64,000 bases of DNA from an uncultured Actinomycetes bacterium (GCA_963780015.1 CAWAAO010000014.1:333336-397335); one strand, 5' to 3'. Counted from the first letter of the stretch, positions 7,057 through 64,000 are shown. Notes: generated by a model not told the origin, from the letters alone. Numbers and translations are program-made.

Positions 7057-7776
7057 ATGGCTGACGGCGACGCACGACCCGCCTACCACCGGGTCTTGCT
7101 CAAGCTCTCGGGCGAGGCGTTCGCACCCCCCTCCGGTTCGGGGATCTCCGACGCCGCGACGGCGCTGGTGGCCCGGCAGCTGGCCGAGGTGGTCGACATG
7201 GGCATCCAGCCGGCGGTCGTGGTCGGCGGGGGCAACATCTGGCGCGGACGCCAGGCCCCCGGCATCGACCGCAATCGGGCCGACTACATGGGGATGCTGG
7301 CCACCATCATGAACGCGCTGGCCCTGCAGGACGCCTTGGAGAAGATCCACGTGCCGACGCGGGTCCAGTCGGCGATCGCGATGACGCAGGTCGCCGAGCC
7401 GTTCGTGCCGTTGCGTGCGACCCGCCACCTCGAGAAGGGCCGGGTCGTGATCTTCGCGGCCGGGCTCGGCGTGCCGTACTTCTCCACCGACACCTGCGCG
7501 GCCCAGCGGGCACTCGAGATCAACGCCGACGCGCTGTTGAAGGGCACGAAGGTGGACGGCGTCTACACCGCCGATCCGGTGGTCGACACGACGGCGAAGC
7601 GGCTCGACATCCTCGAGTACGGTGACTTCCTTCGGGAAGGGTATGGCGTGATGGACGCCACCGCCGTCTCGTTGTGCATGGAGAACAAGCTGCCGATCCT
7701 CGTGTTCAATCTCCGTGACGAAGGCAACATCCGCCGGGTCGTCACGGGCGAGCACATCGGTACCGTCATCCACTGA
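7057..7776 (+). CDS. pyrH: UMP kinase
   Basis: Motifs [40 protein letters not shown] and [22 protein letters not shown]. Confidence 0.96.
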
Positions 7777-7785
7777 GGAGCCCCC

Positions 7786-8346
7786 GTGACGATCGAGACC
7801 GCCATGCGAGACGCCGAGCACAAGATGGATCAGGCGCTCACCCATATGAAGGATGATCTGGGCAGCATCCGAACCGGTCGGGCGGCGCCCGCGGTGTTGA
7901 GCCGGGTCACCGTCGAGTACTACGGCACGCCCGTTCCGTTGAACCAATTGGCCGGCGTGACCGTGCCGGAGCCGCGTCTGTTGCAGGTGCAGCCGTTCGA
8001 CAAGAGCGCGATCGGCGCGATCGAGAAGGCGATCATGACGAGCGATCTCGGCATCACACCGAACAACGACGGCAACGTGATCCGGTTGGCGTTCCCGCCC
8101 CTGACCGAGGAGCGGCGCAAAGAGCTGGTGAAGCAGGTGCACCATCGCGCGGAGGAGGGTCGCGTCGCCGTCCGCAACGTCCGCCGCCACGCGAAGGACG
8201 AGATGGAGAAGCTTGAGCATGACGGCGCTATCTCGGAGGATGATCTTGCTCGTGCGGAGAAGGACCTACAGAAGCTGACCGACCGCTTCGTGGCCGAGAT
8301 CGATCAGATCCAGGGCCACAAGGAGCAGGAACTGATGGAGGTCTAG
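7786..8346 (+). CDS. frr: Ribosome recycling factor
   Basis: Motifs LGSIRTGRAAPAVLSRVTVEYYGTPVPLNQLAGVTVPEPRLLQVQPFD and VRNVRRHAKDE. GAGGAG lies upstream of the GTG. Confidence 0.96.
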   Translation: MTIETAMRDAEHKMDQALTHMKDDLGSIRTGRAAPAVLSRVTVEYYGTPVPLNQLAGVTVPEPRLLQVQPFDKSAIGAIEKAIMTSDLGITPNNDGNVIRLAFPPLTEERRKELVKQVHHRAEEGRVAVRNVRRHAKDEMEKLEHDGAISEDDLARAEKDLQKLTDRFVAEIDQIQGHKEQELMEV

Positions 8347-8350
8347 TCCA

Positions 8351-9863
8351 GTGGCCAACGACGAACGCGGTGGCGACGAGCTCTTCGAGGATCTGGACAA
8401 GTTCTTCGCGCCGATCAAGGACGTGGATTGGGACGAGCCCGACGAGCCGGCGGCGACGGTGCCGGCCGAGGAGCACGTTGCCGTCCGCACCGAACAATCC
8501 GCACCGATCCAGCTCCCCGAGGACGCCGGGGCGCCGAGCGACGCCGGCGACGACGACGCCTGGTACGACACCGGCCAGCTCGAGGAGATCGACGAGATCC
8601 TCGGCGAGCCGGCGCGGGCGGCCGATGAGACCGGTCGAGGTCATCGCGGTCGAGGACGCCGAGCTCGAGGACACACCCGCGGCCGACGCCGATCCGACCG
8701 TGGCGATGGACGCCCTCGAGGTGGAGGAGGTCGTCGTGCGCGCCCCGTCCGCGGAGGAGCTCGAGGCCGCGGCCGATCATTTCGCGGGGTCCCTGGCGCG
8801 CGACGAGACCTATCCGACCGAGCCGGTCGACGTGTTCGCCGGCGAGCCGCGAGAGGCAGATCTGCTCAGCGAGCTCGGTGCCGACGACGTGGAGGAGGAG
8901 CTGCTGTCCGACATGCAGGACGCCTCCTCGCCGCGAACCGTCGTCGTGGGCGGCGAAGGCATCACCGGACCGAGCTGGCAGGAGCCCGCCGCGGTCGAGG
9001 TCGGCGCGGAGATCGATCGCCGAGGATCCGTCACCGGCGATCGCGACGTGCCGGCCGCCTTCATGACCGGGGTGGTCCTGGCGGGGGTCGCCGTCGTGTC
9101 CCTGTGGGCGGGACCGGCCTATTTCGCCGCCTTCGCGGGACTCCTGGTGCTGGTGGCCCAGGGGGAGTTGTTCGGGGTGCTGGTCAAGCACCACTTCCGG
9201 CCGGCCGCCCTGATCGGACTCGTGGCCGGGGCGCTCATGATGCTCGGGGCCTACTGGCGGGGCGAGGCCGCGACCCCGGCGATGTTCGCGCTCGGTGTGA
9301 TCGCGGCGTTCCTCTGGTACATGACCGTGCCCGTCGATCAGCGCTCCCACGTCGTGCGCGACCTCGGGGTCACGGTGTTGAACATGGCCTGGATCCCGTT
9401 GCTCGCGGGCTACCTGATCGCGACGCTCAAGCTGCCCGACGGCAAGGCGCTCGTCCTGTGGGTGATCCTGCTGACGTTCCTGTTCGACACGGCCGCCTTC
9501 CTGATCGGCTCGGTGTCGGGCGGCGGCTGGATCCAACGGCCGCTGGCGCCCAACGTCAGCCCGAAAAAGTCATGGGAAGGCATCATCGGCGGGGCGCTCG
9601 CCACGGCGATCGTCTCCGTGGCGTTCGTGTCCTCGTTCGTCGGGGTCTTCGAAGGGCGAAAGCTGGCGGCGCTGGGACTCGGTCTCGTGATCGCGGGCGC
9701 CGCCACCTTCGGCGACCTCGCGGAGTCGCTGCTCAAGCGGGATATCGGCGTGAAGGACATGGGCACCCTGCTTCCCGGCCACGGCGGGGTGCTCGATCGG
9801 ATCGACTCCCTGTTGTTCGTGGCCCCGGCCACCTTCCTGCTGTTCCGCGTGATCTTCGGCTGA
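8351..9863 (+). pseudogene. cdsA: Phosphatidate cytidylyltransferase CdsA with long acidic N-terminal region (frame break near 8630)
   Basis: C-terminal motifs SPKKSWEGIIGG and FGDLAESLLKRDIGVKDMGTLLPGHGGVLDRIDSLLF. The acidic ORF from GTG 8351 has a coding-like GC3 bias and no stop in its own frame. It joins the cdsA frame at AADE|PVEVIAVEDAELED. Alternative: an independent start at ATG 8625. Confidence 0.75.
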
Positions 9864-30087: not shown

Positions 30088-32433
30088 ATGGTCACTGAGA
30101 TGACGCGCCCCATCGGCGCGCACGACCTGACGATGCAGACCGGCAAGCTTGCGAAGCTCGCCGACGGCGCCGTCGTCGTTACCTACGGACAGACGCAAGT
30201 CATCGCGACCTGCGTCCGTTCCAAGCCCCGCGAGGGGATCGATTTCTTCCCGCTGACGATCGATGTCGAGGAGCGGGCCTACGCGGCCGGCAAGATCCCC
30301 GGCTCGTTCTTCCGCCGGGAGGGCCGCCCCGGCGAGACCGCGATCCTGACGGCTCGCCTGATCGACCGCCCGCTGCGCCCGACCTTCAAGGAAGGGTTCC
30401 GCGACGAGGTCCAGGTGGTCGTCACGGTGTTGTCGGTGGACATGGAGAACCCCTACGACATCCCGGCGATGAACGCGGCCGCCTGCGCCGTGGGCCTCGC
30501 CGGTCTGCCGTTCGACGGACCGGTCGCCGCCGTGCGTCTGGGCCTGATCAACGGCGAGTGGGTCGTCAACCCGACCTACCAGGAGACCGAGGACGCCACG
30601 TTCGACATCGTCGTGGCCGGGTCCAAGAGCGACGACGGCGGCGTCGACGTGCTGATGATCGAGGGCGAGGCCCCCGTGCACACGTGGTCGCTGCTCGCCG
30701 AGGGCGCGCTGGCGCCGACCGAAGAGGTCGTCGCCCAGGGCCTCGAGGTCGCGAAGACCGAGATCGCCAAGATCATCGCGTTCCAGGACGAGTTCATCGC
30801 CGCGCACGGCGTCAGCGAGATGGAGTGGACGCCCACGCCGCAGTACGGCGACGATCTGTGGGACGAGCTGTACGCGAACTTCGCGGGCAAGCTCGAGGCC
30901 GCGATCGTGCCCGACCGTGCCGCGCGCGACGAGGCGTTCAGTGCGGTCAAGGAAGAGGCCAAGGCCCACCTGACGGCGACGTTGGGTGAGGATGCGTTCG
31001 CCGAGCGCGCGGCCGAGTTCGGTCCCGCCTGGAAGTCCCTGCAGAAGAAGGTCATGCGTCGACGCGTGGTCGAGCAGGGCGTGCGGCTCGACGGCCGCAG
31101 CGCCACCGAGATCCGGCCCCTGTCGGCCGAGGTCGGCGTCTTGCCGCGGGCACACGGGTCGGCGCTGTTCAGCCGGGGCGACACGCAGGTGCTGAACGTG
31201 GCCACGCTGGGCATGCTGCGCATGACCCAGATGATCGACACGCTCGATCCCGAGGACACGAAGCGCTACATGCACCACTACAACTTCCCGCCCTACAGCA
31301 CCGGTGAGACCGGTCGTGTGGGCTCGCCGCGGCGTCGCGAGATCGGCCACGGTGCGCTCGCCGAGCGCGCCCTGCTGCCGGTGGTGCCGCACGAGGACGA
31401 GTTCCCCTACGCCCTGCGTCTGGTGTCCGACGTCATGAGCTCCAACGGCTCGACGTCGATGGCGAGCGTCTGCGGCTCCACCCTGTCGATGATGGACGCC
31501 GGTGTGCCGCTCAAGGCGCCGGTTGCCGGCATCGCGATGGGCATGATCGCCGACGACGGGAAGTACGTGACCCTGACCGACATCCTCGGCGCGGAGGACG
31601 CGCTCGGCGACATGGACTTCAAGGTCGCCGGCACCGAGGAGTTCGTCACCGCGATCCAGCTGGACATGAAGGTCCAGGGCATGCCGGCCGACGTGCTGGC
31701 CAGCGCGCTGCAGCAGGCCAAGGACGCCCGCATGCAGATCCTCGACGTGATGCTCGCGACGATCCCGGAGCCACGCGGCGAGGTCAACACCTTCGCGCCG
31801 CGGATCATCACGATCCAGATCCCGGTCGACAAGATCGGCGAGGTGATCGGCCCCAAGGGCAAGAAGATCAACGAGATCATCGCGATGACCGGCGCCGACA
31901 TCAACATCGAGGACGACGGCACCGTGTTCATCGGCTCGACCGAGGGCAACGGGGCCGACGAGGCCGCACGCATGATCGATGAGATCGCGAACCCGCGGCC
32001 GGTGTTGGTGGGCGAGACCTATGAGGGCCTCGTGGTGAAGACCACGACCTTCGGGGCGTTCGTCAACCTGGTGCCCGGCCGTGACGGCCTCGTGCACATC
32101 TCGAAGCTCGGTCGCGGCAAGCGACTGTCCAGCGTCGAGGAGGCCATCAAGGAGGGCGATCACGTCAACGTGCTGGTCGAGGACATCGACCCGCAGGGCA
32201 AGATCAGCCTGAAGCCGATCGGACCGGAGTGGGAGGCGCCCGAGGGCGCCGAGGCCTCCTCGGGCGGCGGCGGTCGCGACCGCGGTGGCGACCGTGGCCG
32301 CAGCAGCGGCGGCGGTGGCGGTGACCGCAGTAGCAGCGGCGGTGACCGCAGCGGCAGCCAGCGGTCGGGCAAGCGGTTCCGCGATCGCGAGGGCGGCGGC
32401 GACGCCACCCCGAGCGAGCCCACCGACGCCTGA
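30088..32433 (+). CDS. pnp: Polyribonucleotide nucleotidyltransferase (PNPase) with Gly/Arg/Ser-rich C-terminal tail
   Basis: Motifs FFRREGRPGE, GRSATEIRP and PPYSTGE. KH motif IQIPVDKIGEVIGPKGKKINEI. S1 motif VGETYEGLVVKTTTFGAFVNL. AAGGAGG lies upstream of the ATG. Confidence 0.97.
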   Translation: MVTEMTRPIGAHDLTMQTGKLAKLADGAVVVTYGQTQVIATCVRSKPREGIDFFPLTIDVEERAYAAGKIPGSFFRREGRPGETAILTARLIDRPLRPTFKEGFRDEVQVVVTVLSVDMENPYDIPAMNAAACAVGLAGLPFDGPVAAVRLGLINGEWVVNPTYQETEDATFDIVVAGSKSDDGGVDVLMIEGEAPVHTWSLLAEGALAPTEEVVAQGLEVAKTEIAKIIAFQDEFIAAHGVSEMEWTPTPQYGDDLWDELYANFAGKLEAAIVPDRAARDEAFSAVKEEAKAHLTATLGEDAFAERAAEFGPAWKSLQKKVMRRRVVEQGVRLDGRSATEIRPLSAEVGVLPRAHGSALFSRGDTQVLNVATLGMLRMTQMIDTLDPEDTKRYMHHYNFPPYSTGETGRVGSPRRREIGHGALAERALLPVVPHEDEFPYALRLVSDVMSSNGSTSMASVCGSTLSMMDAGVPLKAPVAGIAMGMIADDGKYVTLTDILGAEDALGDMDFKVAGTEEFVTAIQLDMKVQGMPADVLASALQQAKDARMQILDVMLATIPEPRGEVNTFAPRIITIQIPVDKIGEVIGPKGKKINEIIAMTGADINIEDDGTVFIGSTEGNGADEAARMIDEIANPRPVLVGETYEGLVVKTTTFGAFVNLVPGRDGLVHISKLGRGKRLSSVEEAIKEGDHVNVLVEDIDPQGKISLKPIGPEWEAPEGAEASSGGGGRDRGGDRGRSSGGGGGDRSSSGGDRSGSQRSGKRFRDREGGGDATPSEPTDA

Positions 32434-41148: not shown

Positions 41149-43506
41149 ATGGCCACGAAGACTTCCCCCTCGCGGCGCTCGTCGTCGCGCGCATCGTCCA
41201 CCCGTTCGAAGACCTCGTCGCGGAAGGCGCCGGCTCGCAAGCGGCCCGCCGCCAAGAAGAAGAAGCCGCCGCGGACGCCCGTCCATCAGATCCTGTCGCC
41301 GCACGCGCGCGATGCCTTCGGGATCTTCCTGGTCGTCGTCGCGCTCGTCGCGGTGCTGGGGCTGTGGTTCGACGGGGCGGGCCCGGTCGGGGACTTCCTC
41401 GGATGGCTGTTCCGTGGCTCGTGGGGCGTGGCCGCGATGCTCTTCCCGTTGGTCGGCGTCTACTGGGGCGTCCTGCTGCTGCGCGACACGGCCCGCGAGG
41501 AGCGCGTCCGTATGTTCATCGGGTTCACGGTGCTGTGCGCCGGCGTCCTCGGGCTGCTGTCGCTGCTCGGCAGCGACCCGGCGCCGACGGCCGGCTACGC
41601 GCTCGTCGCCGCTGCCGGCGGCGTGATGGGCGCGTTGGTCGCCCACCCGCTCGCAAACGTGATCTCCCCGATCGGGGCGGCGATCGTGTGCCTCGGGCTC
41701 ACGCTGCTCGGGCTGCTGATCTTCTCGGGAACCCCGATCGCGACCGCCTGGTCGCACCTGCACGACTTCTTCACCGCCGCCGACGTCGAGGAGGATGACG
41801 ACCCGGCGCCGGCGCAGCTCGTTGTGGAGGAGCCCGCCGGGCCGAAGGTCAAGAAGGAGCGCGTCCGGCACCTGAAGGAGGCGTTCGGCCTTCTCGAGCC
41901 CGAGGGCGACGAGCTCGTCGTCGTGCCGGAGTCGGACCTCGAGTCCGACCTCGACGAGGAATGGGACACCGATGACGCCGACGAGCTCGCGGCCCCGGCG
42001 GCCGTGCGTCGCTCCCGCACCGTGGAGACCGCCGACGGTCCCTACCAGCTCCCGCCGCTGGATCTGCTCCGCGAGGCGCCGCCCTCGACGGCCGACGGTG
42101 CCGACCAGGCGCAGATGCACGAGGCGCTCGAGCAGACGCTTCGCAACTTCGGGGTCGATGCGCACGTCACGGGCGCGCACCGCGGCCCGACGGTCACGAT
42201 GTACGAGGTCGAGGTCGCCGCCGGCACGAAGGTCAACAAGGTGCTGTCGCTGTCCAGCGACATCGCCTACGCGCTGGCCACGCCCGACGTGCGGATCCAG
42301 GCGCCGATCCCCGGCAAGTCCGCGATCGGCATCGAGGTGCCCAACAAGCACCGCGACTTCGTGATGCTCGGCGACATCCTGCGCTCGCCCGCCGCGAAGG
42401 ATGCGACCCACCCGCTCGAGGTCGCGCTCGGCAAGGACGTGCACGGACGGGCGCGTCTGGTGAACCTCGCCAAGATGCCGCACGTGCTGATCGCCGGCGC
42501 GACCGGCGCGGGCAAGTCCAGCCTGGTCAACTCGTTCATCACCTCGCTGCTCGTGCGCACGACCCCCGACGACGTCCGCCTCATCCTGGTCGACCCCAAG
42601 CGGGTCGAGCTGAGCCACTTCGCCGAGGTCCCACACCTGCTCAGCCCGGTGATCGTGCACCCGAAGCGCGCGGCCGAGGCCCTGCAGTGGATCGTGCGCG
42701 AGATGGAGAACCGCTACGAGATGCTCGCCACCGTCGGTGTCCGCGACATCGACGGCTACGAGGAAGGCCTGCGCGACGGCACGCTGCGGATCCCGCCGGG
42801 CCTCGAGCATCAGTACGAGCACATGCCGTTCATCGTGGTCGTGATCGACGAGCTCGCCGATCTGATGATGGTGGCGCCCCGCGACGTGGAGGACGCGATC
42901 TGCCGCATCGCCCAGATGGCGCGCGCGGTCGGCATCCACCTCGTCGTCGCGACGCAGCGCCCGAGCGTCGACGTGGTCACCGGTTTGATCAAGGCGAACA
43001 TCCCCAGCCGGATCGCGCTCATGACCTCCTCGCAGGCGGATTCCCGCGTGGTGCTCGACATGAACGGCGCCGAGAAGCTCGTCGGGCACGGCGACATGCT
43101 GTTCGCCCCCGGCTCGGCCTCGAAGCCGACGCGCCTGCAGGGCGCCTGGGTCACCGAGCAGGAGATCCACGGCATCACCGATTTCATCCGCGGTCAGCGT
43201 GAGGTCGCCTACGACAACATGGTCGAGGGCCTCGGCCTGCCGATGACCGAGGCCGAGCTCGCCTCCGGCGGCGGCGCGGCGCTGGGCTCCGACGACGACC
43301 TGCTCAACCAGGCAGCCGAGCTTGTGATCCGCTCCCAGCTCGGCTCGACCTCGATGCTCCAGCGCAAGCTGAAGGTCGGCTTCGCGCGCGCCGGCCGCTT
43401 GATGGACCTCCTCGAGGAGCAAGGTGTCGTCGGCCCGGGTCAGGGTTCCAAGGCCCGCGACGTGTTGATCACCTACGAGGAGTGGGAAGAGCGCCGCAGC
43501 GCCTGA
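41149..43506 (+). CDS. ftsK: DNA translocase FtsK
   Basis: Ser/Arg/Lys-rich N-terminus and 4 TM helices. Walker A IAGATGAGKSS, Walker B VVVIDELADLMM, gamma domain SMLQRKLKVGFARAGRLMDLLEEQGVVGP. Confidence 0.96.
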   Translation: MATKTSPSRRSSSRASSTRSKTSSRKAPARKRPAAKKKKPPRTPVHQILSPHARDAFGIFLVVVALVAVLGLWFDGAGPVGDFLGWLFRGSWGVAAMLFPLVGVYWGVLLLRDTAREERVRMFIGFTVLCAGVLGLLSLLGSDPAPTAGYALVAAAGGVMGALVAHPLANVISPIGAAIVCLGLTLLGLLIFSGTPIATAWSHLHDFFTAADVEEDDDPAPAQLVVEEPAGPKVKKERVRHLKEAFGLLEPEGDELVVVPESDLESDLDEEWDTDDADELAAPAAVRRSRTVETADGPYQLPPLDLLREAPPSTADGADQAQMHEALEQTLRNFGVDAHVTGAHRGPTVTMYEVEVAAGTKVNKVLSLSSDIAYALATPDVRIQAPIPGKSAIGIEVPNKHRDFVMLGDILRSPAAKDATHPLEVALGKDVHGRARLVNLAKMPHVLIAGATGAGKSSLVNSFITSLLVRTTPDDVRLILVDPKRVELSHFAEVPHLLSPVIVHPKRAAEALQWIVREMENRYEMLATVGVRDIDGYEEGLRDGTLRIPPGLEHQYEHMPFIVVVIDELADLMMVAPRDVEDAICRIAQMARAVGIHLVVATQRPSVDVVTGLIKANIPSRIALMTSSQADSRVVLDMNGAEKLVGHGDMLFAPGSASKPTRLQGAWVTEQEIHGITDFIRGQREVAYDNMVEGLGLPMTEAELASGGGAALGSDDDLLNQAAELVIRSQLGSTSMLQRKLKVGFARAGRLMDLLEEQGVVGPGQGSKARDVLITYEEWEERRSA

Positions 43507-51427: not shown

Positions 51428-51952
51428 ATGAAGGTCACCGCAACCCTGACGGTCAACGGCACCAGCTACCCGGTCGAGCTCGACCCGCACGCGAGCCTGC
51501 TGAAGGCGGTGCGCGAGGAGGTCGGGCTCACCGGCTCGAAGGAGGGCTGCGACGACTCCGAGTGCGGCGCCTGCATGATGCTGCTGGACGGCAAGCCGGT
51601 GAACGCGTGCTCCTACCTGGCGCTGCAGGCGGCCGGTCGTTCGATCACGACGGTCGAGGGCCTCGCCGGCGACGAGGAGCTCGGCGCGCTGCAACGTGCC
51701 TTCCTGCAGCAGGGCGGCGTCCAGTGCGGGTTCTGCACGCCGGGCATGCTCGTGTCGGCCACGGCGCTGCTGCGCGACAACCCCGATCCCTCCGAGGAGG
51801 AGATCCGTATCGGGCTGTCGGGCAACCTGTGCCGCTGCACCGGCTACGACGGCATCGTCCGCGCGGTCAAGCAGGCCGCCTCGGGTGAGGTCGGTGCGAT
51901 CGGGGCACCCGCGTATCACACCGACGCCACGCCGCCGCACCACGCCGGCTGA
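51428..51952 (+). CDS. Xanthine dehydrogenase family [2Fe-2S] small subunit
   Basis: Motifs [23 protein letters not shown] and CRCTGY. Confidence 0.93.
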
Positions 51953-51955
51953 GTC

Positions 51956-53093
51956 TTACGACACGCGTCGCGTCTGCTGGGCGCTGCCGAGCAACCCGTC
52001 GTCGATCGCGACGTCGCCCACCGAGTCGAAATGCGCCGTGAGCGCGCCGCCGCCTCCGGCCACGCTCGTCACGTTGTTGTCCGTGCGGGTGCGGAACGTG
52101 CGGCCGCGACACCGGTCGACGTGCGCGGTCGGGTCGCCGGGCCCCGTGATCGACTCCGTGCCGCTCAGCCAGGCGGCCGTGTCGGCGGGCGGGACGATCT
52201 GGAGATCGGTCGTGGCGGCTGTCACCCCGCCGTCGACGATCGGCCGTTGCGTGAGCAACGCCATGGCGTGTGCTTCGTGGCCGCCGCCGGTCGCGAGCTC
52301 GAACAGGTTGAACCGCCGGTGCGGATGGCCAACACGAACTGATGCGCGGTCGGCGCTGGCCAGCATCGGATGGAGCATCCCGCCGGGCTGCACGGAGGTG
52401 GCGGCGCCGAGCGCACGGCGAGTGAGGCGCGTCGGCGCCGGCATCGAGCGGAAGCCCGATTCGTCGGAGACCACCGCGCCGAGACCGGACGATGGGCAGA
52501 AGGTGCCCCCGCCGCCCACCGCCGCCTCCGCACTGGGTGACGCCGATCACCGTCGCCGCGAAGCGTTGTGCCTTGAGCGTGCCGAAAAAGGACGAGTCCG
52601 CGCGCAGGAGGAACGCGGTGCCGGTGTTGCCGCGGAGCGTGCCCGGTCTCGAGGCTTGGCTGCCACAGGCGCCGGTGAACGGACGCCCACCCGAGGCGTT
52701 GAAGCGCATGTGGAGGTGTCCGAGCGACCCCATGCGGTCGCCGGTGTCGATCCACCCGTGACTGAGATCGCGGTGGAGATGGAAGGCCGTCTTCGGCAGC
52801 TGCCAGCCCCACTGGTGGATCTGCTCGAGTGTCTCGCCAGCCCCGGGGGTGGGCTCTCGCCGCTCGAGCGCGATCGTCAGGAAGGTGAACTGGATCGTGC
52901 CGTCGACGGCGACCTGCTCGGCCGCGATCGACAGGTGATAGCCGTGCACCTTGATCGGCCGCGTCTGGAGCCGCAGGAGCGTCGTGACCCGCGGGCGGAC
53001 TCCGGCGGCCGCCGGCACCGGCCCGACCGGACCCGGGCCGATGGCGATCACCGCCAGCGTTGACAGGGCGATAGCGGCGCGGCGGAGCTTCAT
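51956..53093 (-). pseudogene. Secreted hypothetical protein (frame break in a G/C run near 52510)
   Basis: ATG 53093 behind GGAGGA. Signal peptide MKLRRAAIALSTLAVIAIGP. ..VIGVTQCGGGGG continues in the next frame as TFCPSSGLGAVVSDESGF.. to the stop at 51956. No family recognised. Confidence 0.55.
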
Positions 53094-53160
53094 CCCTCGT
53101 CCTCCTGCGGGTAGGCCTGCCGGGAGTATGCGCTTCCTCGAAGGAGGAACAAGCTGCTGC

Positions 53161-55136: not shown

Positions 55137-56690
55137 ATGATCCCGGTGATCGTGGGCGTCGTCGCACTCGTTGTGGGCGCCATCGTCGGGTTCCTCGTCC
55201 GCGCCAACATGGCGAAGTCCTCCGCGAACACCCTCGAGGCGCAGGCGCGCCAGCAGGTGATCGCGGCCGAGCAGAAGGTCCTGGAAGCCAACCAAGAAGC
55301 AGCCACCGTCCTGCGCAAGGCCAACGAAGACGCCAAGGCGGACGCGGCGCAGGTGCGTCGCGAGGCCGAGGAGGACGTGAAGTCCCGCCGCGACGAGATC
55401 GCCCGGCTCGAGCGTCGGATCCTCGAGAGCGAGGAGGAGGTGCGCGAGCGGACCCGCAAGCTGGATACCCGCAGCGGGGAGCTCGATCAGCGCGACGAGA
55501 TGCTCCACGATGCCCGCCTCCGCCTGGAGCAGGCCGCCGACCAGCACCGCATCCAGCTCGAACGGATCGCCGGCATGACGTCGTCCGAAGCCCGCGAGGA
55601 GCTGGTCGCCCACGTGGTCGACGACGCCAAGCGCTCGGCCATGGCGCAGGTCCGCGAGATCGAGCAGCACGCGCGCGAGGAGGGCGAGGAACGCGCCCGC
55701 AAGATCCTGACGATCGCGATCCAGCGGGTGGCCTCCGAGCAGACGGCCGAGTCCACGGTCAGCGTCTTCGCCCTGCCGAGCGAGGACATGAAGGGCCGGA
55801 TCATCGGCCGTGAGGGCCGCAACATCCGGGCCTTCGAGGCCGCGACCGGCGTCAACATCATCATCGACGACACCCCCGAGGCCGTGGTGCTCAGCAGCTT
55901 CGACCCCGTCCGGCGCGAGGCCGCGCGCATGACCCTGGAGAAGCTCGTCCAGGACGGCCGCATCCACCCCGCGCGGATCGAGGAGGTCCACGAGCGTTCG
56001 CTGGCCGAGATCGAGGAGCGCATCCGCAGGGCCGGCGAGGACGCCGTGGCCGAGGTCGGCATCACCGACATCCACCCCGAGATGATCAAGCTGCTCGGGC
56101 GCCTGCAGTTCCGCACGAGCTACGGCCAGAACGTCCTGCGCCACCTGGTGGAGTCGGCGCACATCGCCTCGGCGCTTGCCTCGGAGCTCGGTGTCGACCC
56201 GGCGATCGCCAAGCGGGGCGCCTTCCTGCACGACATCGGCAAGGCGGTCACGCACGAGGTCGAGGGCTCGCACGCGATCATCGGCGCCGAGATCGCGCGC
56301 CGCATGAAGGAGGATCCCGAGGTCGTCCACTGCATCGAGTCCCACCACGGGGAGGTCGAGCAGCACACGATCCACGCGGTGCTCGCCCAGATCGCCGACT
56401 CGATCAGCGGCGGCCGCCCCGGTGCGCGCCGCGAGTCGCTGGAGACCTACGTGAAGCGGCTGGAGCGCCTCGAGGAGATCTGCAACGCCTTCGAGGGCGT
56501 CGAGAAGGTCTACGCGATGCAGGCCGGCCGCGAGGTCCGCGTGCTCGTGCAGCCCGAGGCGGTCGACGACATCCAGTCCCAGGTGATCGCCCGCGACATC
56601 GCCAAGCAGGTCGAGGAGGAGCTGCAGTACCCGGGGCAGATCCGCATCACGGTCGTCCGCGAGACGCGCGCCACCGAGTACGCGCGATGA
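55137..56690 (+). CDS. rny: Ribonuclease Y
   Basis: N-terminal TM helix MIPVIVGVVALVVGAIVGFLV, a coiled-coil region, KH motif GRIIGREGRNIRAFE, HD domain AFLHDIGKA. Confidence 0.96.
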   Translation: MIPVIVGVVALVVGAIVGFLVRANMAKSSANTLEAQARQQVIAAEQKVLEANQEAATVLRKANEDAKADAAQVRREAEEDVKSRRDEIARLERRILESEEEVRERTRKLDTRSGELDQRDEMLHDARLRLEQAADQHRIQLERIAGMTSSEAREELVAHVVDDAKRSAMAQVREIEQHAREEGEERARKILTIAIQRVASEQTAESTVSVFALPSEDMKGRIIGREGRNIRAFEAATGVNIIIDDTPEAVVLSSFDPVRREAARMTLEKLVQDGRIHPARIEEVHERSLAEIEERIRRAGEDAVAEVGITDIHPEMIKLLGRLQFRTSYGQNVLRHLVESAHIASALASELGVDPAIAKRGAFLHDIGKAVTHEVEGSHAIIGAEIARRMKEDPEVVHCIESHHGEVEQHTIHAVLAQIADSISGGRPGARRESLETYVKRLERLEEICNAFEGVEKVYAMQAGREVRVLVQPEAVDDIQSQVIARDIAKQVEEELQYPGQIRITVVRETRATEYAR

Positions 56691-56727: not shown

Positions 56728-58075
56728 ATGCAGCCCACCTTCCTGATCCGCACCTTCGGGTGCCAGATGAACGAGCACGATTCCGAGCGGATCGGCGGCG
56801 TGCTCATGGCCGACGGCATGACCGCCGACCGACGATGTCGGCGACGCCCGGGTGATCGTGCTGAACACCTGCGCGATCCGTGAGAACGCCGACAACAAGC
56901 TGTACGGCAACCTCGGGCACCTCAAGCCGCTCAAGGACGCCGACCCGAGCCTGCGGATCGTGGTCGCCGGCTGCCTCGCCCAGAAGGATCAGGGCGTGAT
57001 CCAACGCAAGGCCCCGTGGGTCGACGTCGTCGTCGGCACGCATGCCCTGCCGCAGCTGCTCGACCTGTTGGAGCGGTCGCGCACCGAGGGGCCACAGATG
57101 GACGTGCGCGAGTACACCGAGACCTTCCCGAGCGCGCTGCCGGCCGCACGGGGCGACGCGTTCCGGGCCTGGGTCTCGATCGCGCCGGGCTGCGACAACG
57201 CCTGCACCTTCTGCATCGTGCCGCTCGTCCGTGGCCCGCAGCGGTCGCGCTCGATCGGGGACATCCTGGCCGAGGTGCAGGGACTCGTCGCGGCGGGCGT
57301 GGTGGAGGTGACGCTGCTCGGGCAGAACGTGAACACGTTCGGGCGCGACATCACGGTGCCCGACTCGTCGCGCCGGCCGCTGTTCGCCGACCTGCTGCGG
57401 ATGGTCAATCAGGTTGACGGTATCCGGCGGATCCGATTCACCTCGCCGCACCCGCACGACTTCACGCCCGACGTGATCGAGGCGATGGCCACGCTCGGAC
57501 CAGCGTCTGCGAGCACATCCACTTCCCGCTGCAGTCGGGCTCGGACCGCGTGCTGAAGGCGATGCGGCGGTCCTACCGCAGCGCGCGCTACCTCGATTGG
57601 CTCGAGCGGATCCGCGCGGCGATCCCGGAGATCGCCGTGTCGACCGACATCATCGTGGGCTTCCCGGGCGAGACCGAGGAGGACTTCGCGGCCACCCTCG
57701 AGGTCGTCGAGCGCGCGGGGTTCGACAGCGCGTTCACGTTCCAGTACTCGCCCCGGCCGGGCACGCGCGCGGCCACGATGGCCGACCAGGTGCCCCGGGA
57801 GGTCGTCCAGGAGCGCTTCGACCGGCTCGTCGCGCTGCAGACCGAGATCACGGCGGCGCAAGAACCGTGCGCAGGTCGGCACGACGGTCGAGGTGCTGGT
57901 CGAAGGTGACGGCAAGAAGGACGGCTCCACGCAGGCCCGGACGCGCACGAACCGGATCGTGCATGTGCGCGAACCGCTGCCGCCCGGCACGTTCGCGCAT
58001 GCGGAGATCACCGAGGCGGGCGCGCACCATCTGCTGGGCCGGATCGTGCCGGCGCCCGAGCCCGCCGTGGCGTGA
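56728..58075 (+). pseudogene. miaB: tRNA-i6A37 methylthiotransferase MiaB (about four frame breaks)
   Basis: LIRTFGCQMNEHDSE..GMTAD|DDVGDARVIVLNTCAIREN at 56830. Radical-SAM motif [39 protein letters not shown] at about 57497-57504. EITAA|[16 protein letters not shown] at 57859. Confidence 0.9.
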
Positions 58076-58978
58076 TGCTGCGCGCCCTGGTCGGCCCGAC
58101 CGCCAGCGGCAAGACCGAGGCGGGCATCGCGCTCGCCACCGCGCTCGGCGCGGACGTCGTCTCGGTCGACTCGATGCTCGTGTACCGGGGGATGGACGTC
58201 GGCACGGCGAAGCCGACCGCCGAGCAGCGCGCGGCTGGTGCCGCATCACCTGCTGGACCTCGCCGATCCGTCGGAGCGGTTCACGGTGGCGCGGTTCCAG
58301 ACCGAGGCGGGTGCGGTGCTCGGCCGGGTGGCCTCGCCGCTGCTGGTCGGGGGTTCGGGGCTCTACTTCCGGGCGGTGGTCGACGACCTGCGGTTCCCAC
58401 CGGAGGATCCCGCCGTGCGCGCGGCCTCTCGAGGCGGAGGCCGACGAGCTCGGCGCCGACGAGCTCTACCGCGCGGCTGGCCGCCAGCGACCCGGTGGCG
58501 GCCGATCGCATCGAGCCGGGGAACGTGCGCCGAACGATCCGCGCGCTGGAGGTCACGACGATCACCGGCGCGCCGTTCAGCGAGTTCGCGGCGGCATGGG
58601 AGGTGTATGACCCCGCGCGTGTGCGGGTGGCGGGCATCCGCATGGACACGCCGACCCTCGACGCGCGGGTCCGCGGCCGTGTCGCGTCGATGCTCGACGC
58701 CGGGTGGGTCGACGAGGTCGAGGGCCTGGTCGAGCGCGGGTTCGGCGCCTGGCTCACCGCGAGCCAGGCGATCGGCTACGCGGAGCTGGCCGCACACCTC
58801 GACGGTAGGCTGGCGCTCGACGAGGCCATGACCCAGACCGTGAAGCGCACGAAGGAGCTCGCACGCCGCCAGCAGGCGTGGTTCCGTCGCGATCCGCGCG
58901 ATCGAGTGGTTCGACGCGGGGGAGGGCGGCGCCGTCGAGGTCGTCCCCGACGTCGCGGCCTACCTGGAGGCGGCGTGA
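58075..58978 (+). pseudogene. miaA: tRNA dimethylallyltransferase MiaA (about four frame breaks)
   Basis: The P-loop segment GPTASGKTEAGIALA comes first. The segments HHLLDLADPSERFTVARF, LEAEADELGADELY, AADRIEPGNVRRTIRALEV..QAIGYAEL..KRTKELARRQQAWFRRDP and IEWFDAGEGG..YLEAA* lie in successive frames. Junctions fall near 58225, 58425, 58470 and 58895. Confidence 0.88.
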
Positions 58979-59824
58979 CGCGGCGGCTCTCGCTGAGCAA
59001 GTACCAGGCGAGCGGGAACGACTTCCTGTTGGTGGACGAGCTCGACGGGCCGGTCGGGGACTCGACGTGCCGGCGCTGTGCGATCGCTGGTTCGGCGTCG
59101 GGGCCGACGGGCTGATCCAGGTCGGGCGGGGCACCGAGGCCCCGTTCTCGTTCGCGCTGACCAACGCCGACGGCTCGGCCGCCGAGATGTCGGGCAACGG
59201 GATGCGCTGCGTCGGGGCGTGGCTGCGCGACACCGAGCACGTCGCGCACGGGGCGTCGTTCGACGTCGAGACCGCGGCCGGCGTGCGGCACGTGTGGCTG
59301 ACCCTCGAGGGAGCGACCGTCGCGATGGGGCAGCCCAACTTCACGAAGGCGGCGATCCCGATGCGCGGGCCGGCGTGGGAGACGTTCCAAGACCAGCCGT
59401 TCGACGCGGGCGACGGACGCACGATGCGCGCGACCGCGGTGAGCATGGGCAACCCGCACCTGGTGCTGTTCACCGACGAGGACCCCGAGCGCTACCACCT
59501 GGAGCACATGGGACCGGCGCTCGAGCACCACGAGTGGTTCCCCGAGCGCACGAACGTGGAGTTCGCGCGGATGAGCGCCGACGGTGGGATCGACGTCCGC
59601 GTCTGGGAGCGCGGCGTGGGCGAGACGATGGCCTGCGGCACCGGCGCGTGCGCGGTCGCGGTGGTGGCGAACGAGGCGGGCCTGCGCCCGCGAGAGGTCG
59701 ATCGTGCGGTTCCGCGGTGGCCCGCTGCACGTCGAACGGCGCACCGACGGCGAGGTGCTGCTCGGCGGGCCCGTCCAGCACGTGTTCGACGCGGTCGATC
59801 GACCTCGACGAGCTCGCGGGATGA
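58976..59824 (+). pseudogene. dapF: Diaminopimelate epimerase (about three frame breaks)
   Basis: The segments KYQASGNDFLLVDE, FGVGADGLI..EMSGNGMRCVG..VSMGNPHLV..ETMACGTGACA, RFRGGPLHVE and IDLDELAG* lie in successive frames. Junctions fall near 59060, 59700 and 59795. GTGA overlap with miaA. Confidence 0.88.
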
Positions 59825-60919
59825 CCGAGCTGGCCGAGCGGCTCGCCGCCGACACGCTCGCCCTGATCGACATCGCGTCGGAGAGCCGTGACGAGGGCGC
59901 GATCCTCGACGCGATCCGTCCACGCGATTGGCCGCGGCGCCCGGGACTGCAGATCGTCGACGACCACGACGGCGTCCTCGCGGCGCTCCCGAAACGACGT
60001 CCGGGGCTGCCGCTGGTGCTGCTCGCCGGACACGTGGACACGGTGCCGCTGGCGGGGGCGTCGCGACCCGGGCGCCGGACGGCGACGTCGTGCGTCGGCC
60101 GGGGCGCCGCCGACATGAAGGGCGGCGTCGCCGTGATGCTGGCGCTCGCCGACGAAGGCGCCGGCGGCGCCTCGGACCTCGACGTCGGCTATCTGTTCTT
60201 CGGGCGCGAGGAGATGCACGATCGACGGAGTCGGCGCTGCTGCCGGCGTTCGACCGAACGCCCGAGCTGCGGCGAGGCGGCGCTGGCGATCGTGATGGAG
60301 CCCACCGACAACACGCTCGAGGTCGGGTGCAACGGGAACCTCACCGCGCGCGTGACCGTGCGCGGTCGCGCGGCCCACAGCGCGCGCCCGTGGCTCGGCC
60401 ACAACGCGATCCACGCGGCGATCGAGGCGCTGGCGTCCGGTCGCCGACCTGCCGGTCCGCGACGTCGAGATCGACGGGCTCGTCTTCCGCGAGGTCGTCT
60501 CGGTCACGACGATCGCCGGCGGTGTCGCGGGCAACGTCGTCCCCGACCACGTCGAGGCCACCGTGAACTTCCGCTATGCGCCCAATCACACGCCCGGCCG
60601 AGGCGGAGGCACGGCTGCGCGAACTGCTCGGGCACCCGCGGGTCGAGGTCGCGATCGTCGGCAACGCACCGCCCGGTCCCGTCTGCCTCGACAACCCGCT
60701 CGTGACGCGACTGCGCGCCGCCGGCCGACCTCGATGTTCGGCCCGAAACAGGCGTGGACGCCGGTGGCGGAGTTCGGGATGGTCGGCGTCGACGCGGTCA
60801 ACCTCGGCCCGGGAGACCCGCGGTACGCTCACACCGACGACGAGCAGGTCACCGCGACCGCGCTCGCGCGCGCGCACGCGATCGTGTCGGCGTTCCTGGC
60901 CGGGAGGAGCTGTAGATGA
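59821..60919 (+). pseudogene. dapE: Succinyl-diaminopimelate desuccinylase (M20 family; at least seven frame breaks)
   Basis: The segments LLAGHVDTVP, GRGAADMKGG, IDGVGA, LLPAFDRTPEL, ALAIVMEPTDNTLEVGCNG..GRAAHSARPWLGHNAIH, DVEIDGLVFREVVSVTTIAGG..VNFRYAPNHTP, AEAEARLRELL.., DLDVRP and KQAWTPVAEFG..GPGDPRYAHTDDEQV are spread over all three frames. Confidence 0.85.
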
Positions 60920-62095
60920 TGCACCTGTCCCCCGGCCATCCGCGCGGTGGAGCCCTACCCGTTCGAGGAGCTCGACCGGCGCAAGAAGCCGAGGCGGTCG
61001 ATGCCGGCCGACGAGTCGTCGACTTCGGCGTCGGCGACCCACGCGAGGAGACACCGGCGCTCGTGCGCGATGCGCTCACGGATGCGATCGGACCGATCTC
61101 GTCGTACCCGCGCGCCGCGGGTCTGCCGGCATTGCGGCGTGCGATCGCCGCTGGGTGGACCGTCGCTACGGTGCGACGATCGACCCCGACACGCAGATCC
61201 TGCCGACCCTCGGTTCGAAGGAGCTCGTGTTCTCGCTGGCGCAGGCCGTGCTCGATCCCGCCGCCGGCAAGGACCTCGTGCTCACGACCGCGCCCGGCTA
61301 CCCGATCCCCGAGCGGGGCGCGCGCTACGCCGGCGGCGACGTCCATCGTCTGCGTCTGACCGAGGAGCGCGGCTTCCTGCCGGATCTCGGGGCGATCACC
61401 GACGAGCAGTGGGCGCGCGCCAGCCTGCTGTGGCTGAACTATCCGAACAACCCGACCGGCGCGGTGGCGCCGCTGTCGTTCCTGGCCGAGGCGGCCGAGC
61501 GATGCCGCACGCACGACGTGTTGCTGGCCTCCGACGAGGCCTACAGCGAGCTGTGGTTCGGCGACGAGCCACCGTCGGGCGCGCTCGCAGCTGCCGGACC
61601 TCACCAACGTCGTGGTGCTCAACACGCTGAGCAAGCGTTCGTCGATGACCGGCTACCGCAGCGGCTTCGCGGCCGGCGATCCCGACCCTGATCGCGCGCG
61701 CTGCAGCGGCTCCGCCCGGCGGTCGGGGTCACCCCGCAGGAGTTCGTCCAGCGCGCGAGCATCGCGGCCTGGGGCGACGAGCGCCACGTCGAGCAGAACC
61801 GGGCGCGGTACGCGGCCAAGCGGGCGGTGTTCCTCGAGCTGTTCGCGCGGCACGGCGTGCACGTCGCGGGCAGCGAGGCGCACCTTCTACCTGTGGGTGG
61901 CGGTCCCGAGCGAACGCCCGTCGCTGGCCTGGGCGATCGAGCTGCTGGATCGGGCAGACGTCGTCGTCGCGCCCGGGTCGTTCTTCGGACCGGAGGGCGA
62001 GGGGTACGTGCGCATGGCGATGGTGCCCGACCCTCGAGGAATGCGAGCGCGCCGCGGGCTCGCTCGACCGGCTCTTCGCGGAGGTGCGCGCGTGA
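60916..62095 (+). pseudogene. dapC: N-succinyldiaminopimelate aminotransferase (DapC-type class I aminotransferase; about eight frame breaks)
   Basis: The segments AVEPYPFEELDRRKK, VVDFGVGDPREETP, WVDRRYGATIDPDTQILPTLGSKE..LNYPNNPTG..SDEAYSELWF, VVLNTLSKRSSMTGYRSGFAAGDP, LQRLRPAVGVTPQEFVQRASIAAW, FYLWVAVP..APGSFFGPEGEGYVRMAMVP and TLEECERAA lie in alternating frames. Confidence 0.85.
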
Positions 62096-62924
62096 TCGAG
62101 GAGCTCGCCGCGCGCATCGACGCGACCTGGACGGCCGTCCAGGCGGATCCGGCCGCGCCGATCGACGTCGAGGCCGTCGAGGACGCCATCGCGGCGCTCG
62201 ACCGCGGCGAGGTGCGCGTCGCGGAGCCGACGGCGCCGGGCGAGCCCTGGCGCGTCAACCACTGGGTCAAGCAGGCGGTGCTCCTCTACTTCCGTGTGCG
62301 CGGGCTGGAGACGACCGAGAGCGGGCCCGTTCGAGTATCACGACCGGCTGCCGCTGAAGCATGGGTACGCGCAGGCGGGCGTGCGCGTCGTGCCGCCGGC
62401 GACGGTCCGCTACGGCGCGCACATCGAGCCCGGCGCGGTGCTCATGCCGAGCTACGTCAACATCGGCGCGTGGGTCGGCGCGGGCACGATGGTCGACACC
62501 TGGGCCACGGTCGGCTCGTGCGCGCAGATCGGCGCCGACGTGCACCTGGCCGGCGGGGTCGGGATCGGCGGCGTGCTCGAGCCCGTGCAGGCCGCCCCCG
62601 TCGTGATCGAGGACGGAGCGTTCATCGGCTCGCGCTGCATCGTGGTCGAGGGCGTCCACGTCGGCGCGGGCGCGGTGCTCGGCGCCGGCGTCGTCCTGAC
62701 GGGGAACACGCCGCTGATCGATCCTCGCGGCGCCGAGCCGCTCGAGTATCGCGGCCGCGTGCCCGCCGGCGCGATCGTCGTGCCGGGCTCGCGCGCCCGC
62801 GAGTTCCCGGCCGGGCACCTACGGGATGCCCTGCGGCCTCATCATCGGCGAGCGCACCGCGGCCACCGACGACAAGGTGGCCCTGAACGACATGCTGCGC
62901 GACTTCGGATCCTCGCTGAGCTAG
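62092..62924 (+). pseudogene. dapD: Tetrahydrodipicolinate N-succinyltransferase (two frame breaks)
   Basis: [16 protein letters not shown] comes first. After a break at about 62320 come [81 protein letters not shown]. After a break at about 62815 comes [30 protein letters not shown]. Close to the E. coli-type DapD. GTGA overlap with dapC. Confidence 0.9.
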
Positions 62925-62929
62925 CCGCG

Positions 62930-64000
62930 ATGCCCCAACACCCCCAGGACCGCATCGTCGAGTCACCGATCGCCGCGACCTGGCGCTCGGTCCAGCACGA
63001 GCGCGCCGTGCTCGTCGGTATCGGCCCCGGCATCATGGAGGCCGACCTCGACGAGCTGGCGGCGCTCGCCGACTCCGCGGGCGCCGAGCCCGTCGGCCGG
63101 ATCATCCAGAGCCGCGCCGAACCCGACCCGCAGCTCTGGATCGGCAAAGGGAAGGTCGAGGAGCTGCACCAGGTCCTGCACAGCGACGCGCGCCGAACTG
63201 GTGGTCTGCGATCAGGAGCTCTCGCCCGGGCACCTGCGCTCGCTGGAGGCGCGCCTGGGCGTCAAGGTGCTCGACCGCACCGCCCTGATCCTGGACATCT
63301 TCGCGCTGCACGCCCACACGCGCGAGGGCAAGGCCCAGGTCGAGCTCGCGCAGCTGAACTACCTCCTGCCGCGGCTCCGCGGCTGGGGTGAGGCGATGAG
63401 CCGGCTCGGCGGCGGTATCGGCACCCGCGGGCCCGGGCGAGACCAAGATGGAGTCCGACCGGCAGCACATCCGCCGCCGCATCGCGAAGCTCCGTCGCGA
63501 CGTCAAGGCGATGCAGACGACGCGCGACACGCAGCGCGCCAGCCGCCAGCGCTCGAACATGCCGCAGGTGGCGATCGCCGGCTACACGAACGCCGGGAAG
63601 TCCTCGCTGATGCGCCGGCTGACCGGCGCCGACGTGATCGTGGCCGATCAGCTGTTCGCCACGCTCGACCCGACGACCCGCCGGATCGTCCTGCCGGGCG
63701 GGCGGGTCGCGACGCTGTCCGACACGGTGGGGTTCGTGTCGAAGCTCCCGCACGACCTCGTCGAGGCGTTCCGTTCGACGCTGGAGGAGGTCACCTTGTC
63801 GGACATGATCGTGCACGTCGCCGACGCGGCCTCGGCGGCGCTGGACGACCAGATCGAGGCCGTCCACACGCGTGCTGGAGGAGATCGGCGCGGCCAACAT
63901 GCCCGAGGTGCTCGTGCTCAACAAGATCGATCTGGTGCCGGGCTCGCGACGGGCGCGCCTCGCGCACCCGGTATCCGGGCTCGGTGGCCTTCTCGGCGGT
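62930..64000 (+). pseudogene. hflX: GTPase HflX (3' end outside window; three frame breaks)
   Basis: LHSDAR|[18 protein letters not shown] at 63194. Then ..[39 protein letters not shown]|ETKMESDRQ at about 63433. Then ..[21 protein letters not shown]|VLEEIG..LNKIDL at about 63870. Confidence 0.9.

Follow-up and report, generated by a model that had tools for sequence, protein, structure and literature searches.

Clustered frameshifts from miaB to hflX in an uncultured Actinomycetes contig: a long-read assembly artefact that probably reflects collapsed strains

The window analysed here comprises 64,000 nucleotides of a contig from an uncultured Actinomycetes bacterium, and the seven consecutive genes at its end, from miaB to hflX, are shattered by frame breaks. 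As judged by comparison with related sequences, this run of frameshifts is an artefact of long-read metagenome assembly and not biology, since the species has these genes intact in other assemblies; the same comparison indicates that the organism itself carries them unbroken. The errors probably arose in the consensus at places where strains merged into a single contig differ by about 3-6%.

Frame breaks between 56.7 and 64.0 kb

Frame breaks were located with a self-written frameshift-aware protein-to-DNA alignment (DP alignment), for which the intact proteins of the same-species contig L083, together with DapD of the relative L027 and HflX of the relative L004, served as references; an earlier run had used more distant reference proteins. 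This procedure replaced a plain tblastn search with relatives' proteins, because the tblastn HSPs crossed the shifted stretches at reduced identity and the breaks were thus under-counted. The DP alignment places 33 frame breaks in the seven genes, namely 3 in miaB, 4 in miaA, 3 in dapF, 9 in dapE, 8 in the dapC-like gene, 2-3 in dapD and 4 in hflX. An earlier note on this DNA, written from the sequence alone, had counted at least 31 breaks in the last 7.3 kb (about 4, about 4, about 3, at least 7, about 8, 2 and 3 in the same gene order), in close agreement with the present numbers. The genes concerned, and the one preceding them, are as follows.

55137..56690, + strand: rny (ribonuclease Y), intact; a single 517-aa ORF, DP alignment to L004 Rny without frameshift, 99% identical to P0001-P0007.
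56728..58072, + strand: miaB, 3 breaks (+1 at about 56824-56827, +2 at 57491-57503, +1 at about 57859); DP alignment to L083 MiaB.
57488..57506, + strand: hypervariable patch within miaB; the window and the same-species long-read contig L082 are both shifted by +2, with different sequences (multi-strain alignment).
58075..58975, + strand: miaA, 4 single-base insertions (about 58234-58237, 58427, about 58472, 58900); alignments to same-species contigs and DP alignment to L083 MiaA.
58975..59821, + strand: dapF, 3 breaks (-1 at about 59060, +1 at about 59699, +1 at about 59796); same-species alignments and DP alignment.
59821..60904, + strand: dapE (Gram-positive-type succinyl-DAP desuccinylase), 9 breaks from about 12 indel events, the peak of the zone; same-species alignments and DP alignment.
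60916..62092, + strand: dapC-like class I/II aminotransferase, 8 breaks; DP alignment to L083, SKRSSMTGYR present.
61962..62921, + strand: dapD (tetrahydrodipicolinate N-succinyltransferase), 2-3 breaks (62028, about 62320, about 62819); DP alignment to L027 DapD.
62873..64000, + strand: hflX, 5' three-quarters (the gene runs off the window), 4 breaks (63185, 63435, 63870, 63964); DP alignment to L004 HflX.

The intact rny lies directly upstream and serves as an internal control. The dapD break at 62028 is shared with the end of the dapC-like gene. At the patch in miaB, no shift is present in the contigs L083, L081 and L084 or in any of the more distant relatives. The hflX break at 63185 also falls into a hypervariable patch, where L082 is again shifted by +1 with a different sequence. 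A counterpart of dapE is absent from the relatives L027 and L047, and the gene is variably present among sister lineages.

Apart from the frame, the seven genes look normal. The DP alignment detected no in-frame stop codons across the genes of 56.7-64 kb, and neither nonsense codons nor larger deletions in the seven broken genes. Once the frames are stitched, the proteins are 97.3% (MiaB), 96.7% (MiaA), 94.7% (DapF), 89.4% (DapE) and 96.4% (DapC) identical to the intact proteins of L083, and the motifs CDNACTFC, GPTASGKT, SKRSSMTGYR and GYTNAGKS are all recovered; the earlier note had likewise seen its conserved motifs survive stitching, and had reported neither in-frame nonsense codons nor large deletions. 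GC3 phase plots display many short frame segments at 56.7-64 kb and gene-length segments elsewhere. The identities of the proteins follow from NCBIfam scores of the intact orthologs, which exceed the equivalog cut-offs (in brackets) for MiaB with TIGR01574 at 471 (355), MiaA with TIGR00174 at 255 (149), DapF with TIGR00652 at 244 (115), DapE with TIGR01900 at 364 (304), DapD with NF008808 at 333 (204) and HflX with TIGR03156 at 443 (217). DapC reaches 391 bits with TIGR03537, which is under the equivalog cut-off of 454 bits, and the protein is therefore named only a DapC-like aminotransferase.

Indel density along the window

Three- and four-way alignments of same-species contigs delimit the zone in which the consensus is degraded.

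57300..64000, unstranded: degraded-consensus zone; three- and four-way same-species alignments, change point at about 57.3 kb, per-bin table.

As baseline we counted window-private indels with a length that is not a multiple of three. There are 8 of these at 45.1-56.7 kb, about 6 at 31.2-43.7 kb, one unambiguous case and up to 5 ambiguous ones at 12.6-33.6 kb, and at most 4 candidates at 1-12.6 kb, the latter from frame analysis and Pfam only; the same-species comparison covered 12.6-43.7 kb and 45.1-64 kb. The total for the first 56.7 kb is about 16-25. The zone contains about 4.9 window-private indels and about 25 private substitutions per kb, compared with 0.7 and 8 per kb at 45.1-56.7 kb, and the indel density in the rest of the window is about 0.1-0.7 per kb. 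This clustering is far beyond chance (binomial p = 4e-20). The earlier estimates of about 20 breaks in the first 56.7 kb, and of about 4 breaks per kb in a zone far denser than elsewhere, thus hold. It had also been proposed that the step occurs right after an intact rny; rny is indeed intact, but the step is not located exactly there. The first break lies at 56.82 kb, the statistical change point of window-private events lies at about 57.3 kb, and the zone itself is uneven, with a peak of 10-18 indels per kb at 59.5-61.5 kb that covers dapE and the 5' portion of the dapC-like gene.

Comparison with other assemblies of the species

The same-species contigs that were retrieved are about 97% identical to the window at the nucleotide level and include the JGI contig L083, the long-read contigs L081 and L082, and L086, which is the upstream part of L082's contig. 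In L083, miaB (447 aa), miaA (299 aa), dapF (282 aa), dapE (360 aa) and dapC (390 aa) are full-length ORFs, whereas the intactness of dapD and hflX was judged from the more distant orthologs in L027 and L004 only and not from same-species copies. The three- and four-way alignments identify 28-29 insertions and 6-7 deletions as private to the window between 56.7 and 64 kb. Among the 34 indels that are strictly window-private and not divisible by three in length, none occurs in L081, L082 or L083, and in the DP alignments none of the 33 break sites is shifted in the relatives. A search for the same indels in independent assemblies had been suggested as a check by the earlier note, which favored a local sequence-quality artefact over pseudogene decay; with 0 of 34 private indels recurring and the genes intact in L083, that view is sustained.

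Sister long-read assemblies of the species err likewise at other positions, whereas short-read-type contigs do not. Over 19 kb, L081 has 23 and L082 has 18 private 1-nt indels, at other places than those of the window, and dapD carries 5 breaks of its own in each of them. About 35 private insertions are found over 21 kb in L094, and L086 possesses its own hot zone with 14 private indels in 1.7 kb, at the window equivalent of 33.8-35.5 kb. No private 1-nt indels were detected in the JGI and NCBI contigs L087 and L088, and a single one in L083.

Error signature

The 100 private insertions collected from four assemblies share a signature. Most consist of one additional G or C (+1), with C[G]C and G[C]G as dominant contexts, and 24% of them adjoin an identical base where 58% would be expected (p = 9e-12), so that homopolymer error was rejected as their cause. 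In the window, 10 of 33 insertions touch an identical base, and the ratio of insertions to deletions is about 28:6. GC content was also considered as a driver and rejected, as it correlates weakly with the indels of the window (r = 0.34) and not at all with those of L081 and L082.

The errors coincide with strain-variable sites and copy the alternative allele. The inserted base equals the allele of another strain at an adjacent site in 6 of 22 window insertions (null 4%, p = 2e-4) and in 8 of 13 insertions of L086 (null 2%, p = 2e-11); for the other 16 of the 22 window insertions, such direct evidence of both alleles is lacking. Deletions fall on sites that are polymorphic between other strains in 3 of 7 cases in the window (p = 9e-4) and in 4 of 8 cases in L081 (p = 9e-5). 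Of 29 window indels, 12 lie at most 1 nt from a site polymorphic among other strains, compared with 13% expected (p = 2e-4), although these adjacency statistics could be slightly inflated by the gap placement of the aligner. The indel density of the window per bin also follows the divergence between L081 and L082 (Spearman 0.48, p = 0.002).

The substitutions point to a mixture of real and erroneous changes. In the zone, 66% of the private substitutions are at codon position 3, and real-looking private SNPs at this position are about twice as frequent as elsewhere; an excess of substitutions at codon positions 1 and 2 is confined to the zone. Taken together, the private substitutions of the zone are consistent with about 130 real SNPs and about 50 errors, so that the signal of a more divergent population is present. 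A clustering of substitutions around indels, as expected for complex local errors, was not seen (2-9 observed, 2.5-8.8 expected). The natural diversity of the reference strains rises about 1.5-fold in the zone but the indel rate about 7-fold, and therefore something specific to the sample, either strain composition or depth, must add to it.

Origin of the errors

We think that the errors probably stem from strains collapsed into one contig. The source would be an uncultured Actinomycetota species of high GC, assembled from a long-read metagenome, and the consensus of 57-64 kb would have been built from reads of at least two co-occurring strains that are several percent apart in this segment. 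At strain-variable sites, the consensus or polishing step would tend to write both alleles in tandem, resulting in a +1 insertion, and less often neither allele, resulting in a -1 deletion. Some 34-38 short indels and about 50 substitutions of random appearance would be the outcome, and they would break up seven genes that are normal in other respects. That the source sample contained several strains is suggested by sequence comparison and not by reads, and a Nanopore/Flye-type platform and pipeline is suggested by related contigs from ENA with Flye-style names and by relatives that include Microflora Danica Nanopore MAGs. The tandem pattern is direct in only about a quarter of the window insertions; the remainder could be plain low-coverage noise, and the effect may be strengthened by each strain being covered less deeply where the strains diverge. 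The sequence evidence points to collapsed strain variation instead of, or in addition to, low coverage.

Low coverage, which the earlier note had proposed as the cause, is on its own possible but unlikely. The stretch would then be covered by hardly any reads, or by one read alone, as may happen close to a contig end, in a gap fill or at a thin bridge of the assembly graph, with a consensus of about raw-read accuracy and no mixture of strains. The errors of the zone, about 5 indels and about 7 substitutions per kb, amount to about 1.2%, a rate that individual Nanopore reads of recent chemistry can show. The increase is a local one that continues to the end of the window, the excess at codon positions 1 and 2 occurs in the zone alone, and the 16 of 22 insertions without direct evidence of both alleles would fit as well. 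However, random read errors should not favor polymorphic sites or copy the allele of a neighbor, as the observed ones do; real-looking third-position private SNPs double in the zone as well, and other same-species assemblies display a milder enrichment of errors in the same diverse segments. The MFD-LR pipeline uses a minimum read-coverage cut-off of 8 in Flye for large data sets (PMC12313526), which makes a single-read stretch less likely if the contig, as is presumed, originates from there. A very improbable alternative is that basecalling or polishing failed systematically on the local sequence, be it very high GC, motifs or DNA modification, with neither mixture nor depth playing a role. 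The C[G]C/G[C]G signature common to four assemblies, the weak GC correlation of the window indels and the three patches at which both the window and L082 are shifted (57.49, 60.59 and 63.18 kb) would be in line with it, but nearly every error position is private to one assembly, the location of hot zones differs between assemblies, and the indels of L081 and L082 are uncorrelated with GC. Moreover, the three patches lie in sequence that is hypervariable among strains, and the window and L082 carry different shifted sequences there.

That the frameshifts are real, through recent pseudogenization of miaB to hflX or as tolerated or recoded breaks, is hardly credible. Nothing more than their presence in the deposited sequence speaks for it, together with the two or three positions at which another assembly is shifted as well. 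Against it stand 34 private indels in 7.3 kb despite about 97% nucleotide identity to strains with intact genes, and stitched proteins that are still 89-97% identical to intact orthologs. The insertion bias is about 4:1 and homopolymers are avoided, whereas bacterial mutational bias favors deletions and slippage at runs, the opposite of this pattern. The same signature is also scattered over other genes in the other assemblies of the species. The marks of pseudogene decay are thus missing: the indels are unshared and insertion-biased (about 28:6), nonsense codons, in-frame stops and larger deletions are absent, and 66% of the substitutions are at codon position 3. Slippage during transcription or programmed frameshifting, which would call for a conserved slippery or homopolymeric site, fits no better, with 10 of 33 insertions touching an identical base and relatives in frame at 33 of 33 sites.

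Comparison with known systems

The pattern resembles errors of long-read metagenomes assembled with Nanopore reads and tools of the Flye plus Medaka type, in that indels of 1-2 nt split conserved genes without nonsense codons, are private to one assembly and are missing from short-read-type contigs of the species. Textbook Nanopore errors, in contrast, are deletions in homopolymer length, whereas insertions outside homopolymers prevail here and are strongly clustered rather than evenly spread. Errors of this gene-fragmenting kind have been described both where coverage is low and for chimeric population genomes (PMC12313526, PMC8012365, PMC12007338). With consensus errors of collapsed haplotypes, the window shares indels on or beside strain-variable sites, inserted bases that equal the alternative allele, deletions at polymorphic sites and a zone placed where the species is more diverse, but the heterozygosity within the sample is here deduced and not seen directly. 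A search for the insertion of both alleles in tandem yielded no explicit description in the papers it covered. Decay of the Mycobacterium leprae type also affects consecutive housekeeping genes with many frame breaks; it differs from the present case, where strain sharing, deletion bias, stops and large deletions are absent and the divergence is still dominated by synonymous changes.

Significance

The finding is an ordinary one, and its use is that of a quality warning; it matters for quality control and not for biology. If the sequence were accepted as it stands, seven housekeeping genes would pass for pseudogenes and the succinylase branch of lysine/DAP synthesis would seem lost, which would distort metabolic reconstruction and the completeness or coding-density statistics of this MAG. 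Assembly-private, insertion-biased indels outside homopolymers, in which the inserted base is the neighboring allele of another strain, offer a diagnostic for this class of artefact that requires no reads. More tentatively, and with slightly less than even confidence, we suggest that the artefact traces a genuine feature of the population, in that dapF-dapE-dapC-dapD is a locally hyper-diverse, probably recombining stretch, and that several strains 3-6% apart in it coexist in one soil sample. If this is true, the places where co-occurring strains of the species diverge would be marked by the indel hot zones of its long-read contigs.

Frame structure from miaB to hflX

The window has a GC content of about 70%. 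Its nearest kin are uncultured Actinomycetota MAGs, and its Rny is 90% identical to that of the best-matching species representatives in GTDB. According to codon-position GC plots and a Viterbi frame caller with 7 states, the coding phase switches every 70-700 nt between 56.7 and 64 kb (hereafter the zone), and runs in gene-length segments in the rest of the window. As plain tblastn passed through the shifts, we turned to an aligner of our own, which sets protein against DNA by dynamic programming and treats frameshifts as explicit states. It finds no frameshift in rny. With intact same-species proteins as reference (more distant references were also run), it finds 33 frame breaks in the zone, gene by gene as listed below, so that the per-gene figures and the total of the earlier note were essentially right.

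Genes of the zone in order 3' of rny, with frame breaks in the window and protein lengths in L083, a same-species contig that spans rny-dapC
rny, 55137-56690: intact, directly upstream of the zone
miaB: 3 breaks; 447 aa
miaA: 4 breaks; 299 aa
dapF: 3 breaks; 282 aa
dapE, 59814-60952: 9 breaks; 360 aa
dapC-like aminotransferase gene: 8 breaks; 390 aa
dapD: 2-3 breaks
hflX: 4 breaks

These alignments contain no in-frame stops in the zone genes, the stitched proteins are 89-97% identical to their same-species counterparts, and the radical-SAM CxxxCxxC, both P-loops and SKRSSMTGYR are all found, as reported, once the frames are stitched. Scored on intact orthologs, NCBIfam upholds the identities of MiaB, MiaA, DapF, DapE, DapD and HflX, and the aminotransferase falls short of the DapC equivalog cut-off. 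The gene tables place dapB and dapA upstream of the zone, as had been stated, at about 33.7 and 38.5 kb. In the relatives L027 and L047, dapE has no counterpart and the aminotransferase gene lies directly 3' of dapF; dapE is therefore variably present among sister lineages.

The clustering of breaks in the zone is strong (p ~4e-20), and the first 56.7 kb holds about 16-25 breaks, in line with the roughly 20 reported before. The abrupt rise described in the earlier note is real, but it does not coincide exactly with the rny end: events private to the window, that is, seen in it alone among the aligned assemblies, have their change point at about 57.3 kb and peak at 59.5-61.5 kb. Candidate extra frameshifts at about 2800, 3310, 5055 and 8632 are GC3 phase changes without an obvious gene boundary; their surroundings comprise an M23 peptidase beside a PQQ-like beta-propeller, an unannotated ORF and the region upstream of cdsA.

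Comparison with same-species assemblies

Same-species contigs were found by an Rny protein search in which 99%-identical proteins matched, and contigs encoding an M16 peptidase and a NusA identical to those of the window were also fetched. In DNA, these contigs share about 97% identity with the window; they form two classes, a clean one with intact genes (JGI and NCBI: L083, L084, L085, L087-L090, L092, L093, L095-L098) and a noisy one with fragmented genes of its own (ENA, Flye-style names: L081; L082 and L086, two parts of one contig; L091; L094). The window's private indels in 56.7-64 kb amount to 28-29 insertions and 6-7 deletions in 3- and 4-way alignments, and same-species alignments give 8 private indels in 45.1-56.7 kb. 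Recurrence of the indels in independent assemblies had been named as a refuting outcome for a local artefact, and none of the private zone indels is present in L081, L082 or L083, which rules out inherited mutations. The sole positions where zone frameshifts are not strictly private are three short patches at 57.49, 60.59 and 63.18 kb (57488-57506, 60583-60597 and 63178-63190), where the window and L082 are both out of frame with L081, L083 and more distant relatives. All three are hypervariable among strains, the shifted sequence of the window differs from that of L082, and the two assemblies have probably acquired their consensus errors independently, at multi-allelic patches.

The noisy assemblies have hot zones elsewhere. 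L086 (ERZ25039560 contig_45625) carries 14 private 1-2 nt indels within 1.7 kb (7250-8950), equivalent to 33.8-35.5 kb of the window and lying over dapB and an acetyltransferase gene, an interval across which the window, L087 and L088 are clean. In L094, a 21-kb stretch that is clean in the window holds about 35 private +1 insertions, and dapD is broken five times each in L081 and L082. As hot zones lie at different places in different assemblies, they belong to individual assemblies and not to the locus; they tend toward more diverse segments. Noise is uniform in the same-species assembly L094, a 1.15-Mb contig (ERZ25039536 contig_6640) whose positions 1-21053 align to 12.6-33.6 kb of the window: private +1 insertions run at about 1.7 per kb all along this stretch and split ispG, infB, truB, pnp and the M16 peptidase gene.

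Error signature and local diversity

Among 100 private single-base insertions pooled from four assemblies, C[G]C and G[C]G contexts predominate, and only 24% have an identical base next to them, where 58% would be expected (p = 9e-12). Insertions outnumber deletions about 4:1 in the window's zone. This signature differs from natural slippage and from deletion-biased decay. Of 29 window indels, 12 are no more than 1 nt away from a site variable among other strains (13% expected; p = 2e-4). The inserted base matches another strain's allele at the neighbouring position in 6 of 22 window cases (p = 2e-4), as it does in 8 of the 13 single-base insertions of L086 across the aligned 31.2-43.7 kb (p = 2e-11). 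At 57858-9, for example, the window has GC, L083 G and L081 C; such a both-allele pattern is directly visible in only about a quarter of window insertions. Of the window's 7 deletions 3 are at polymorphic sites, as are 4 of the 8 in L081, and window indel density follows L081-L082 divergence in 500-nt bins (Spearman 0.48, p = 0.002).

Window-private substitutions rise from 8/kb to 25/kb in the zone, where 66% fall on codon position 3 versus 80% outside, figures compatible with a mixture of roughly 130 real SNPs and about 50 errors. The stretch 51950-53156 (about 1.2 kb), present in same-species contigs, is replaced by about 10 nt in the relatives L001-L003 (78-82% identical); it holds a minus-strand ORF of 244-377 aa in L081 and L082, for which no Pfam match was found, and has the top SNP and indel density within 45-56.7 kb in all three long-read assemblies. 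A GCAGC/GCGGTG-rich repeat that closes pnp on its 3' side (32318-32349) is polymorphic in length, the window being about 18 nt longer than L087 and L088 and L086 intermediate. Relative to L087 and L088, ftsK has in-frame insertions at 41254, 41810 and 41935, of 3 nt (AAG, CGG) and of a 12-nt GACCTCGAGTCC repeat, the latter common to L086; these insertions probably reflect genuine differences in repeat number within the FtsK linker.

Origin of the frame breaks

The hot zone was accurately observed and is highly non-random, and its frame breaks belong to a known general class of assembly artefact. Contig names and the Nanopore MAGs of Microflora Danica that occur among the relatives are our basis for inferring the platform; that project used Flye --meta and one Medaka round, and describes Nanopore-associated errors at lower coverage (PMC12313526). 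Low coverage alone could be considered as the cause of the zone errors, and we give this about a quarter of the probability; the placement of indels at sites variable among strains points to a consensus assembled from reads of co-occurring strains, 3-6% divergent in this segment, which at heterozygous sites would have written out both alleles or left out both. Thinner read coverage of each strain in this divergent stretch may add to the effect. The genes of the zone should be regarded as intact, and the zone is useful as a reads-free diagnostic for strain-collapse errors.
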